64,000 nt of DNA, taken from contig OX597823.1 in assembly GCA_951406725.2 (NCBI GenBank), forward strand, positions 9,982,001 through 10,046,000, in the 5' to 3' direction. The notes under the pieces were generated by a model, which saw only the letters and a list, made by a program, of their open reading frames with translations, was not told the DNA's origin and searched no databases. This stretch comes from Octopus vulgaris. Its lineage: Eukaryota. Positions 11,655-51,530 of this stretch are shown here, piece by piece. Position 1 is the first letter of the stretch. The number at the start of each line of letters is the position of its first letter. The translations under genes and the position numbers were made by a program.

Positions 11655-11859
11655 GAAAAACTATATAAAAACGTTTAACTAAAACACTTAAAATGGTGCT
11701 ACTTGCGAGTGGGGAACATGCAGCCATTTCACCTCCATTATTATAAAGCATCTTTCATTCATTCGTTTTGCGTTTTTTGTCCTCATTGTGGTGTCCTATC
11801 TGTCCTTGTACAGCCTCCCTCTCTGTATGAGCCTATGTGCTCAAATAAAGAAATGAGTC

Positions 11860-13005
11860 ATGAGTCAGTACATTCTGTTGTTGGTGGTGTTTTCTTTAAC
11901 GTCAGTGCGAATTGTTACAAATTGTTATTTATAATTGTTGAAGGTCTCCCCGTGTGGGTGTACCACGATTTGTTAAATTACTTAAATTGTTGAATTTTCG
12001 TCACTGTTTTGTTTGCATAGTATTCGAATCTGTTTATCACCCATCTACGGTAGAATTGGAGAAAGGAAGAGAGAGATGAAGAGTGGACAAAGTTACGCAG
12101 CGGCAACTACACAAGGAATAAATGCCAACACCCAGGAAGTACGGGAAATAAAAACTGAACCCCAAGAAAATGGAAGGAAGGAAGCAAATTGCTGGAAAAG
12201 GAAGGAGCCGGTCGAAAACAGGCTCTTCCAGAAGAACGGAGAAATAATGTGGCAAAGAGGACGGTGGTATACAGGACGTCGTCTACGTCCTCGAACAAGA
12301 TAGAGGTCGTCCCGATAGAGGCAATAAAAGAGTGCCTTGAAAATGTCAAGAGGTTGACCTTTTTATACACGTGGAAGAAAGTACGGCACAGTGGAAGTAA
12401 GGTTTGGCAACGAAGAAGACGCCATAAGCCACTCCACTGTGCCGATAAGGACACTGGAATGCGTACTTCTGCCGACGTACTGTGGCAAACGCGTTGCTAG
12501 AGTAAGAATGGTGCTACGGTATGGAGAATGAGGTGAAAATCCTCAAGATAACGAGGACCAAAAATGACAATTGGTGGGAGTATGGTCTCGAGATGCCATA
12601 CAGGTGAGCTTAAAAAACCTGTATGGCATCACAGAGGAAATCATACTCCTAGGAGACACTAGATTTCGAGTAGTAGTAGAAGGAAGACAGCCAACATGCT
12701 TGCTATGCGGCAAAAAAGGGCACGTGAAGGTGCCCTCAGAAGGAAAACGAATCCGAGGAACAAAAAGGTGAAAAGAAGAGTACCAAATAGGTAGCACCAG
12801 TAACAGAGACAGATAGATTGGAGGAATCCTTCACAGACGTGAACAGGAGAAAGAGAAAAGAACGGGTGAGCTCTCCTCCAGAGAGCCAAAAAAGGTTGAA
12901 AGAGGAGAAGAGAAACAGTTGCGAGACACCAACCTGAATTAATAATGAAAGACGGCGCAGAGGCAGAAACAGCATTACAACAGGATGTGGGAGGAAGCAG
13001 CGCTT
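11860..13005 (+). pseudogene. Second, diverged ORF1 element (Tx1/L1-like), 3' truncated
   Basis: Translated pieces MKSGQSYAAAT..., KRTVVYRT... and RVVVEGRQPTCLLCGKKGH (CCHC knuckle); several frameshifts. Confidence 0.75.
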
Positions 13006-13051
13006 ATTATTTTGTTTTTTTTTTAATATTTTTTACACGCCCGGACAACAG

Positions 13052-13265
13052 AAGGCAGCGAAGTGGCAGAATCCTTACGACGCTGGACAAATGCTTAGCA
13101 GCATTTCATCCGTCTTTACGTACTGGGTTCAAATTCCACTGGGGGCGGACTTCGCTTTTTATATTTTAAGGATCGATAAAGTGAAAAGTGAGTAGCAGTT
13201 GAGCAATGAAGTTGATGTAATCGACTTGCTTCTTCCCTGAAATTGATGGCAATTTGAAACCGATA
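13052..13265 (+). mobile_element. Degenerate SINE family B
   Basis: ggcagcgaagtggcagaatc...gggttcaaattcc...gatcgataaa...gatgtaatcgactt. Confidence 0.7.
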
Positions 13266-13804
13266 TTTTAGAGAGTTAGATTAAGAATAACAATAGAACA
13301 GTCAAGGAGTGAGATTTCAATTTGTGAAACAAATGGCTAAATTAGCCGTCAGACCAACAGTTATTTTGTGTGTGTGTGCATACATGTATGTATATATGTC
13401 TTCACACACACGCACACACAGATCGAGCTGCCGCTCCTCGCACGTGATAGCGGCATGGTTGCGGAACGGCAGCGTTGACAGGGTCGGTTCGGCCGAGCAA
13501 TGCCGACGGCGGCATGCTCACATGTGCAGGCCATTCGGTTGGCAAGCACAGTGATTTTTAGAGACCTAAGCTGTATAAAGCCGCATGAGGGGGAACGATA
13601 ACGGGTCTATGATGCCATTAGATGTTCGGGACCGCACACACATTACACTAGCGATATCAGTGGGCGCGTCTCCAGTGAGAGGGATCGGGGCCTGCAACCA
13701 AACCTGTGAACGAAAAATCCCCAATAGGTGCGGATCATCAGCCCGCAGAGGTCACATTCCTGTCCTTTGAACAGACCACCCATCTTATTAAGAAGCTAAT
13801 TCCT

Positions 13805-13990
13805 GTCAGGTCGCTCCGAGTACTACTGGTAACATGTACCGCAGTACAACCAGTTGCATACTCAGCGTTATCGGCGAATAAACCAGTAATACCACCGAGT
13901 GTTCTTGTCAAGGAATGACACCTTGTCGGACGGAAAACAAACCCCTCAAAAGAAGGAGAAACTCAAGAGTGTACGGTCATTCAATAATGT
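13805..13990 (+). mobile_element. Fragment homologous to the RTE-like 5' region at 28640-28830
   Basis: gtcgctccgagtactactggtaacatgtaccgcagtacaacc...aaaacaaacccctcaaaag...ggtcattcaataa aligns by eye with 28640-28830. Confidence 0.6.
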
Positions 13991-48421: not shown

Positions 48422-48843
48422 TACTCTTTTTTACTCTTTTACTCGTTTCAGTCATTTGACTGCGGCCATACTGGAGCACCGCATTCAGTCGAAGAAATCG
48501 TCCCAAAGACTTATTCTTTGTAAGTACTTATTCTATCAGGCTCTTTTGCCGAACCGCTAAGTTGTTGGGGACGTAAACACACCAGCATCCGTTGTCAAGC
48601 GATGTTGGAGGACAAACACAGACACACAAACATATACACACACATACATATATATATATATATATATATATATATATACACACTACGGGCTTCTTTCAGT
48701 TTCCGTCTATCAAATCCACTTACAAAGGCTTTGGTCGGCCCGAGGCTATAGTAGAAGATACTTGCCCAAGGTGCCGCGCAGTGGGACTGAACCCGGAGCC
48801 ATGTGGTTGGTATGCAAGCTACTTACCTCAGAGCCACTCCTGC
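48422..48843 (-). mobile_element. SINE family A
   Basis: Reverse complement of the family A consensus. Confidence 0.9.
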
Positions 48844-49420
48844 TGTGTTATATCATTTTCAGACAAATCACGTCTAGAAATTTAAATGAATCCAAAGTTT
48901 TGCTGTTCTAAGTGATCCGTATTATATAATGATTATATAGTTGGTCAAGTTATTACTACATTTGCACACACACACACACACACACACACACACACACACA
49001 CACACACAAACATACATACACATATATTCATTCTACAACTTATACCCAATCTCTCTAATAGGAGTCGATATTAAATGAAGGTGCAGAAAGAAAAAGAATC
49101 GGACTCTGAATACATTTATTCATCCGTGTGTCTCTTGGCTCACTTGCAGAGATCATAATACATATAATTACTGACGTTAAACGATTTATGTCATACGGGC
49201 AAGAAAGTTCTGAATCAACATTTAGATAAAGAAAAATAAAGTGTTTAGTCATAGTTCTTAAATCTGTAGCAATGGTCTCCTTGGAATTGTGATATCATAA
49301 AAAAAAAAGATATAATCTGCACAAGCTATTTTTATTGTTCTTATTGTGTGAGTCTCGCTGAGTGTATATTTTGTATTCTAAGCAAGCAACATAGCTGGAA
49401 CCAATAAGAATTAATAGTTA

Positions 49421-49965
49421 AAGCGGTGAGCTAGTAGAATCGTTAGAACGCCGGGAATAATGCTTAGCGGCATTTCGTCCGCTGAGGTCAAATCTACCTT
49501 CCATCATTTCTGGTTCGTTGAAATAAGTACCATCTGAGCATTGGTATTGATGTAATCGACTCATCTCATCCGCAGAAATTGCTGCTCTTGTACCAAGGTG
49601 TGGAACCAATATATTAGCGTTTACTTCAGGCGGTTAGCTGGCCAGAATAGTGAGCAGGCTGGTCAAAATGCTTTGTGATATTTCGTCTGCCGTTACGTTC
49701 TGAGTTCAAATTCCGCCGAGGTCGACTTTGGCTTTCATCCTTTCGTGATCGATAAATTAAGTACCAGTTACGCACTGTGGTCGATATAATCGACTTAATC
49801 CGTCTGTCTGTCCTTGTTTGTCTCCTCTGTGTTTCGCCGCTTGTGGATAGTAAAGAATTAGGTATTTCGTCTGCCTTTTGCCCTTGGTTAAAATTCCGTC
49901 GAAGTCGATTTTTTCTCCCACCATTTTAGGGTCGATAAAATAAGTACTAGTTGAGCACTGAGGTC
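49421..49965 (+). mobile_element. Tandem cluster of SINE family B copies and fragments
   Basis: Three successive B-domain copies (49421-49610, 49628-49865, 49862-49965). Confidence 0.85.
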
Positions 49966-51300
49966 GACTTTGTTGGCCGAGTATCAAACTTTGAAACAAA
50001 TATGTTGGTTTACTGTAAAATATAAGTCATTTTAATTATTTTATCGGATAGGAGATTTTGCTTCCGAATAATACTGTCGTATTATAGAAGAGCTTTTAGT
50101 ATAAGTATTATAATAACAATTGCATTGCTTTAAACGATAATTCGGGATTCTAGAAAATAAGATATTTCTTCTGCGAATGGGAACAGATTATTTAGACTGG
50201 AAAGGGAACAAAATTTATCTTTTTATATTTTAAAAATATTTTCATCATTTTAGATTCATAAAGTCAAAGTGGGATTCATTTGTCCAGTTTAGTGCCTAAG
50301 CTACTGTGTTGGGCGATCTTCACAGCCCTAAATTTATAGGGGTTTGATCTAGAAGAAGGGGATCCAACCATGGCTTTAGGTGCACCTCGAGACAAATGAA
50401 ATTGGAAGAGGGGAATGATTGTATTGAACAAATATAAAATAATAGCTACTGGAAAATAAAAAAAAACAAGAAACATATTCCAGTAAGGTAACTTCTTTGG
50501 TAGCAAGACCAAGATAAATTGGTTACCACTTCTTCTGGGGAAGAGCGCACAATATGTAAGTGTGCCAGTCTGAAACCCATGAGTGGCGTTGGCATGAGAC
50601 TAGTCAACATCGACGAGTAGAAGCCATAGATATAGCGTTAGAGAAGCCGTCTAAGAAGACACCAGGTCAGTGGAGGAACTATAGTGTTTCACTAAGCCGA
50701 AGTTCATTTTCTTGAATTTTGTGAAACTGTACCTTCGGCAAGCTGCATAGATTTTAGCGTATCGAATATTTCTTAGGTTTCTAGTTATGCTGGTCTTTAA
50801 AGTATTGCTAACTCTCGAAGATTTGATTTTTTTTTTTCAATTTGGAACACACACGGTAGAGTCTTATTGCGATTTGTGTGTGTGTGTTTAGTGTGTGTGT
50901 GTGTGTGTGTGTTTGTGTTTGGTGTTTGTGTGTGTGTGTGTTTGTGTTTGGTGTGTGTGTGTGTGTGTGTGTGTGTGTGTGTGTGTGTATGTGTGTGTAA
51001 CAAGGGTTGGAATTTAAATGGAATGACAAGCAATTATACTCTGAAATTCTAACAACTTGTCTACATCTTCCAATGTAATTTGTTTGATTTTAGTTCCTGT
51101 ATTCAAAAATAATAATTCAGAATAGAGTCCCAATACACAAAGGGTTTGGACACCTGTAGAACCGAGATATATGCACATAAAGTATGAGCAAATATGACAA
51201 CCGAACACTCGATCCATTCTAAGCGTAGTGCTTTATAACATAACTGCATACGTATATACATATATATACATACATAGATGAATATGTATATGTGTGTAAA

Positions 51301-51530
51301 AGGCGGCGAGCTGGTAGAAACGTTAGTACGCCGGGCGAAATGCGTTGCCGTATTTCGTCTGCCGTTACGTTCCGAGTTCCAATCCGCCGAGGTCGACTTT
51401 GCCTTTCATCCTTCTGGGGTCGATAAATTAAGTACCAGTTACGCACTGGGGTCGATGTAATCGACTTAGTCCGTTTGTCTGTCCTTGTTTGTCTCCTCTG
51501 TGTTTAGACCCTTGTGGGTAGTAAAGAAAT
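51301..51530 (+). mobile_element. SINE family B, full length
   Basis: aggcggcgagctggtagaaacgttag...cccttgtgggtagtaaagaaat. Confidence 0.95.

Follow-up and report, generated by a model that had tools for sequence, protein, structure and literature searches.

The question raised by this locus is whether three kinds of retroelement that lie close together in an octopus genome end in one and the same 3' tail and, if so, whether a single type of enzyme moves them all. The locus is a stretch of 64,000 nucleotides (nt) from Octopus vulgaris (GenBank assembly GCA_951406725.2, contig OX597823.1, positions 9,982,001 to 10,046,000 of the forward strand), referred to below as the window and numbered from its first letter. 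It contains copies of a long interspersed element (LINE), of a short interspersed element (SINE B) and of an element that carries only the first open reading frame (ORF1) of a LINE. The results below were drawn from the window, from public protein sets and from four sequencing runs. A reading made earlier from the letters alone (the sequence-only reading) had inferred from the similar ends a three-tier retrotransposition system with stringent 3'-end recognition, a scheme that we keep in conditional form. The alignments make it highly probable that the SINE B tail is homologous to the 3' end of the LINE. The ORF1-only element likely carries this tail too, so that it and SINE B likely borrow an enzyme of the LINE's group, and we lean, with some reservation, towards the reading that transcripts of both are copied in trans by an L1/Tx1-type ORF2 protein that recognises their common, non-poly(A) end. 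The elements concerned are the following.

36080-36788, plus strand: LINE copy 1, 5'-truncated, L1/Tx1 group, 76% identical to the C-terminus of the protein P0126
36064-36079, plus strand: 5' copy of the exact 16-bp target duplication of LINE copy 1 (3' copy at 36789-36804)
36864-37071, plus strand: LINE stub 2 (208 bp) in the same microsatellite, identified by reading the sequence and aligning it to copy 1, tail at 37021-37071
24546-24781, plus strand: SINE B copy, tail at 24733-24780
30535-30769, minus strand: SINE B copy, followed by a headless piece of the sister SINE B'
45368-45602, minus strand: SINE B copy flanked by a target duplication of 15 bp
49625-49860, plus strand: SINE B copy that runs into headless B' sequence
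51296-51530, plus strand: SINE B copy lying within (TA)n/(TG)n repeats, tail at 51483-51530
about 9730-11854, plus strand: ORF1-only element with 5' untranslated region (UTR), frameshifted ORF1 (about 9940-11174), 3' UTR and tail (11800-11854)

Eight related 3' tails were found in the window, two on LINE copies, five on SINE B and one on the ORF1-only element. The tail sequences quoted in the sequence-only reading were all located (11804-11853, 24733-24779, 37021-37071 and 51483-51529); to these were added three SINE B tails (at 30535 and 45369 on the minus strand and 49811 on the plus strand) and a second LINE tail (36738-36788). The last 70 nt of the element ends were aligned locally in pairs and the scores compared with those of 5000 dinucleotide shuffles. 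For LINE against SINE B tails none of the 5000 shuffles reached the observed score in any of the four pairs tested (ten are possible), and the comparison with shuffled controls that had been proposed for this alignment was thus significant. As the tails had been picked once their likeness was noticed, which speaks for chance as the source of all the similarity, the whole window was scanned. When either LINE tail was slid along both strands, all seven remaining tails (one LINE, five SINE B, one ORF1-only) outranked all background, with scores of 42.5-56 for the six non-LINE tails and 37.5 for the best background position. Leave-out nhmmer searches of the 64 kb were made with profiles of the five SINE B tails, of the LINE tails and of both together; the SINE B profile recovered both LINE ends, with expectation values (E) of 1.8e-5 and 3.7e-4, and the LINE profile recovered the SINE B tails with E from 1.8e-4 to 0.062. 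The window-wide values contradict chance for SINE B and the LINE, and a three-block version of the tail pattern occurred at only nine unrelated places among 241 million metagenome records, so that an origin of all the similarity by chance is hardly credible. Those nine matches and a single viral one were set aside as chance occurrences, none resembling the window or the ORF1 or ORF2 queries; the exact LINE-tail pattern gave no match in viral contigs.

The test was repeated, with 3000 shuffles, after removal of the last 12 nt, which form an AATAAA-like block. The LINE/SINE B score was then reached 0-17 times in nine of the ten pairs and 77 times in the tenth. The homology is restricted to the last 45-55 nt or so, with a gapped identity between LINE and SINE B tails of about 65-70% over about 55 nt; upstream of the tail SINE B showed no likeness to the LINE or to the ORF1-only element (327 and 366 of 1000). 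Thirteen other element ends compared with the two LINE tails scored 13-23, the best of them being equalled by 24 of 500 shuffles, and nothing significant was obtained. None of the eight ends carries a poly(A) tail.

For the ORF1-only tail the evidence is less clear-cut. Compared with SINE B tails, its score was reached by 0, 0 and 22 of 5000 shuffles (three of five pairs tested), and compared with the two LINE tails by 5 and 13 of 5000. It was the next match in all three leave-out profile scans, with E of 1.9 for the SINE B profile, 0.17 for the LINE profile and 0.24 for the combined profile, in which the match after it stood at 4.2. Once the last 12 nt were removed, 2, 12, 62, 128 and 376 of 3000 shuffles equalled its scores against the five SINE B tails. 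Given the shuffle, profile and trimmed-end results together, we regard the link between SINE B and the LINE as firm and that of the ORF1-only element as borderline: its tail is likely a more diverged version of the same sequence. The claim of one tail for all three elements therefore stands for SINE B and the LINE and is borderline, by sequence, for the third.

LINE copy 1 (709 bp) comprises the last 112 codons of ORF2 (36080-36418), a pyrimidine-rich 3' UTR of about 370 nt and the tail at 36738-36788. Its ORF2 end aligns with residues 1037-1148 of P0126, an intact protein of 1148 amino acids with Exo_endo_phos, RVT_1 and zf-RVT domains (an endonuclease, reverse transcriptase (RT) and zinc domain arrangement), and the fragment is 97% identical over 37 amino acids to an O. 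bimaculoides protein. P0007, an ORF2 relative at the 44% level, matched human L1 ORF2p with E 9e-69 and R2 with E 5e-16. As the window copy contains the ORF2 C-terminus only, the endonuclease and RT traits are those of P0126 and P0007, and by these protein alignments the LINE belongs to the L1 group of non-LTR retrotransposons. The "Tx1 LINE" of the sequence-only reading thus does have the tail, but the tail quoted for it belongs to the separate 208-bp stub, and the LINE itself is a 3' fragment. A single (TATC)n run holds both LINE copies, and TATC runs account for 0.95% of the window; as they share a single locus the two insertions are not fully independent. The 16-bp duplication of copy 1 sits in the (TATC/CATC)n run and takes in irregular CATC units, and the stub has a 13-bp duplication (36851-36863 / 37072-37084). 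Microsatellite targeting is a hallmark of several Tx1 families (PMC4494074, PMC3812793), and on such hallmarks the LINE is likely a member of the Tx1 clade. In an RT tree built from 64 of 118 RT stretches, with no known Tx1 member among them, an octopus-like branch lay apart from a Dendrobium/Denticeps group, the deep nodes being weak. A search for loci related to P0126 found none in viral or prokaryote contigs.

The targets of the LINE and of SINE B differ, and this bears on which LINE drives the system. The LINE family at 36 kb is probably a relative of the driver and not the driver itself, because (TATC)n is targeted by the LINE and not by SINE B or the ORF1-only copy. A different explanation is that SINE B is really partnered by some LINE from a different clade whose tail is closer, and that the match described here is second-hand, through an exchange of tails between LINE clades. 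The tail identity of about 65-70% is indeed below the 72-95% given for bivalve pairs (PMC11481361), and the target preference is not common to SINE B and the LINE. However, searches of the window, made with L1-type queries only, revealed no further remnant of a LINE ORF2, and a sister Tx1 family would account for both the low identity and the target; for O. vulgaris 80 L1-Tx1 families, 13 of them with recent copies, are listed in the supplement of PMC13282606. We therefore consider a partner from another clade very improbable.

The five SINE B copies are each about 235 nt long and 81-87% alike. Their relationship to a sister SINE, B', is of interest for the origin of the tail. B' was recognised by sequence comparison at these positions.

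13052-13265, plus strand: SINE B', head and body as in SINE B, other tail
near 4412-4550, minus strand: further SINE B' copy
near 40900-41106, plus strand: further SINE B' copy
near 49419-49610, plus strand: further SINE B' copy

B and B' share head and body and diverge only a few bases short of the LINE-like tail, so that by this comparison the difference between them is an exchange of tails, as would be expected under the mosaic model of SINE evolution (PMC5804259, PMC11481361). Two SINE B copies, at 30380-30769 (-) and 49625-50010 (+), continue through an identical junction into headless B' sequence that ends in the B' tail; judged from the junctions, the two may represent a composite B+B' subfamily, or B may have inserted into B' repeatedly. 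Target duplications of 15-16 bp had been claimed for both SINE B and the LINE, and this held for LINE copy 1 (16 bp) and for one SINE B copy but not for the other SINE B copies: a clean 15-bp duplication flanks one of the five (the copy at 45363), two have duplications of 7 and 10 bp, and for two none was convincing. A B-box-like motif, GTTCAAATTC, is visible in SINE B, and the body resembles the Nin/Deu domain. ARAGORN reported no tRNA gene, and the SINE B copy at 45363 gave no match to the Rfam tRNA model.

The sequence-only reading had also described a hairpin with a TGT loop in the tails. A small hairpin with a UGU-containing loop can form in seven of the eight; that of the ORF1-only element is the one tail which folds better than its shuffles, none of 500 being as good over its last 42 nt. 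In the terminal 31-32 nt the predicted minimum-energy topology is the same for the ORF1-only tail as for the two LINE tails, with UCU/AGA and UGU/AUA helices, an inner stem and a CURUGU loop, the inner stems being AGCC/GGCU and UGAGC/GCUCA. The SINE B version has GCCC/GGGU and a CUUGU loop, with predicted energies of -2.3 and -2.1 kcal/mol in two copies. A hairpin in the tails is on these predictions plausible.

The ORF1-only element was examined together with its neighbourhood, in which two further features were recognised.

11268-11654, no strand assigned: high-copy SINE of an unrelated kind that interrupts the 3' UTR of the ORF1-only element, with a 13-bp target duplication (11255-11267 / 11655-11667)
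11856-13005, plus strand: second element encoding ORF1, which begins immediately after the first one's tail

Net of the SINE insertion, the 3' UTR from the ORF1 stop to the tail is about 260 nt long, and tblastn with seven ORF2 queries found no ORF2 remnant in the element. Copies were surveyed in four of 24 listed sequencing runs, under three organism labels, by contig differences and joints among the matches listed. In all four runs variant contigs covered ORF1, the tail and the sequence on either side of the inserted SINE; no contig of another copy bridging ORF1 to the tail was among the matches listed. The element is a real unit without ORF2 and belongs to a multicopy family, other copies of which may have the same structure. 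Variants of its tail were found at 11810, 11814 and 11816, in up to five contigs in run X1 and in one or two in the others; the changes at 11814 and 11816 yield GTCCCC, which is the reading of the SINE B copy at 30536 and nearly that of the LINE stub. The 5' UTRs of the first and second elements are homologous and their ORF1 core DNA is identical at 375 of 540 aligned bases. The junction between the two is present on contigs identical or nearly identical to the window in runs X1 and X2. No exact target duplication longer than 9 bp was found for the ORF1-only element, its flanks being the similar 5' ends of the two elements. No tail was found for the second element; a candidate at about 13748-13804 was dropped, its score of 36.5 being that of background. 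A third, strongly decayed and tailless ORF1 fragment of the same family lies at about 63150-63520 (+). In O. bimaculoides, gene model P0221 contains two successive ORF1 stretches, and in P0004 the end of a LINE ORF2 is fused with an ORF1 that lies downstream of it; together with the head-to-tail elements described here, these hint at same-orientation clusters.

A profile of the ORF1 core matched 470 protein clusters (at 50% identity), and the family model has two RRMs and one CCHC knuckle, by which the family is modelled as Type I ORF1. Pfam zf-CCHC was reached by six of 85 members. An intact relative has a predicted fold with a predicted local distance difference test (pLDDT) score of 93.8, which resembles tandem-RRM proteins (Foldseek E 1e-4 with low TM-scores; VIA Z of at most 8.7, 76 residues, root-mean-square deviation 2.4). 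Solved L1 ORF1p structures were absent among the fold matches listed, which excludes nothing, and a search of the ESM Atlas with ORF1 gave no usable match. Type I ORF1 is associated with Tx1 in non-mammalian animals, and other clades carry it too (PMC5203782). Eight of ten relatives looked up were named, all from octopods (O. bimaculoides, O. sinensis, O. vulgaris and Argonauta). The RRMs of the family have no Pfam model, and the ORF pieces of the window itself matched no Pfam family. Members of the family have also been absorbed into unrelated octopus gene models, for WD40, LDL-receptor and astacin proteins.

The mechanism that we favour is modelled on established SINE-LINE pairs. A SINE with the B/B' body would have gained a LINE 3' end by template switching, and the ORF1-only element would have arisen through internal deletion of such a LINE. 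The ORF2 protein would bind a small stem-loop, with the loop CU(R)UGU and the helices UCU/AGA and UGU/RUA, and prime reverse transcription in the absence of a poly(A) tail. The modest tail identity and the location of SINE B outside TATC suggest as the actual driver a sister LINE family that would lack the TATC specificity.

Several results weigh against copying in trans by such an enzyme. None of the five SINE B copies, nor the ORF1-only copy, lies in a TATC run, as against two of two LINE copies. The ORF1-only tail is non-significant in the profile searches (E 0.17-1.9), its score against the LINE tails is reached by 150 and 525 of 3000 shuffles without the AATAAA block, and its comparison with three ends of unrelated elements also gave 6, 9 and 10 of 500, though at far lower scores (22-29); the family variant at 11810 departs from the LINE tail. 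In none of 23 scanned ORF1 hits was ORF1 joined to ORF2, with no RT or endonuclease domain present. As to the fold, the shared topology is the best one in none of the five SINE B copies and has positive energy in three, and neither the LINE tails (89 and 378 of 500) nor the SINE B tails (30-286 of 500) fold better than shuffles. The covariation analysis that had been suggested for the hairpin gave no support among the eight tails: RNAalifold, on an automatic alignment, returned a consensus of -0.53 kcal/mol with an unfavourable covariation term, and the stem difference between the LINE and the ORF1-only element can be one paired deletion instead of three compensatory changes.

Some of these points are what would be expected if there were two tiers only, SINE B having the LINE tail and the ORF1-only element having reached a similar pyrimidine- or GU-rich end with AATAAA by convergence and been moved in some other way. 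The profile values, the loss of LINE/ORF1-only significance without the last 12 nt and the failure to see this ORF1 linked to a LINE ORF2 fit such a view. However, no outside match ranked above the ORF1-only tail in any of the three leave-out scans, its position coincides exactly with a retroelement end, no shuffle of 5000 reached its score against two SINE B copies (2 and 12 of 3000 without the AATAAA block), and it folds as the LINE tail does. We therefore judge two tiers unlikely, if worth keeping in mind. The weak folding and the missing covariation would also fit a tail that is simply the relic of a template switch, copied by an indifferent enzyme that is relaxed or uses short 3' microhomology as mammalian L1 does. 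L1-clade tails are moreover rare among SINEs (3 of 58 pairs; PMC3472496), and the same letters, AGGTA, running into the flank, terminate four of the five SINE B copies, including those at 24546 and 45363. A relic is nevertheless doubtful, more so than two tiers, as none of the eight ends has poly(A), all stop within a few bases of one motif and the similarity is limited to the terminal block.

The remainder of the window holds features of other kinds. A second abundant SINE, with about 12 overlapping copies (including 4936-5366, 25003-25459, 35268-35695 and 52059-52476), carries a (TA)n/(TG)n run in its interior and ends in a tandem sequence resembling TAAAAGAG; it is unrelated to the tail studied here. 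A near-perfect palindrome of 138 bp lies at 9118-9255, with similar fold-backs at 9318-9560, 3820-3997 and 7637-7692; a 146-bp unit is tandemly duplicated at 62597-62890, and a GC-rich single-copy stretch with no evident ORF lies at 13420-13800, behind the second ORF1 element. A whole-window Rfam search gave 232 matches; the 150 listed were all to microRNA models, fell below the cut-off and lay nearly all on microsatellites.

Shared 3' tails are known from 58 SINE-LINE pairs (the Okada/Ohshima rule; PMC3472496, PMC3747384), and half-LINEs have likewise long been described (PMC3747384, PMC5786205); the octopus case is a variant of this rule, and what is unusual is the partner clade. It resembles established pairs in its short common terminal block, its possible small stem-loop and the modular swap of tails on one SINE body, and differs from them in a partner of the L1/Tx1 group, in lower identity and in a candidate stem-loop that lacks covariation support. 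In the survey of 58 pairs, three SINEs have L1-clade tails, all from maize/sorghum or Chlamydomonas (PMC3472496). The crocodilian SINEU is also thought to be moved by a Tx1 element, Tx1-Mar, and shows tandem insertions at one target, but there the link is the common target, the tails are poly(A) and no LINE sharing the 3' end was found, whereas in the octopus the tail is common and the target is not (PMC4494074). Like HAL1, HeT-A and Ag-Sponge (PMC5786205, PMC5753468), the ORF1-only element has a 5' UTR, ORF1 and a short 3' end with no ORF2, and a head-to-tail neighbour; unlike them, it has an RRM-RRM-CCHC ORF1 with named relatives from octopods and a non-poly(A) tail predicted to be structured. 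Kibi, Koshi and the crocodilian microsatellite Tx1 elements are APE-type elements in microsatellites, as is the octopus LINE, twice in one run; their targets are (TC)n, (TTC)n, (TTCC)n and (TTTC)n, that of the octopus LINE is (TATC)n, and the kinship is one of hallmarks (PMC3812793, PMC4494074). SINE B is, like the octopus tRNA-Deu and tRNA-Core SINEs, OK, OR1 and OR2, an abundant octopus SINE, of about 235 nt, and no partner LINE is given for those SINEs in the accessible parts of PMC8967140 and PMC4824008. We found no report of the octopus tail link in the literature searched; Repbase, Dfam, SINEBase and subscription papers lay outside that search and may hold it.

An open question is what the L1-group enzyme recognised ancestrally, a specific RNA structure at the 3' end or poly(A) only; the sole SINE-tail evidence on it came from plants and a green alga (PMC3472496). 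It is possible, though we hold this only tentatively, that an octopod Tx1-type LINE enzyme reads a 3' stem-loop and not poly(A), and that a SINE of very high abundance and ORF1-only elements, in a large radiation of their own, have both acquired this handle. If true, this would place recognition by structure within the L1 group in an animal, where three classes of rider would make use of it. Such an animal L1/Tx1-type case, for which a 31-nt stretch is the candidate element, P0126 provides an intact ORF2 relative and stem variants occur naturally, would make the question directly testable, and it would name the driver clade for one of the SINE expansions characteristic of octopus genomes.

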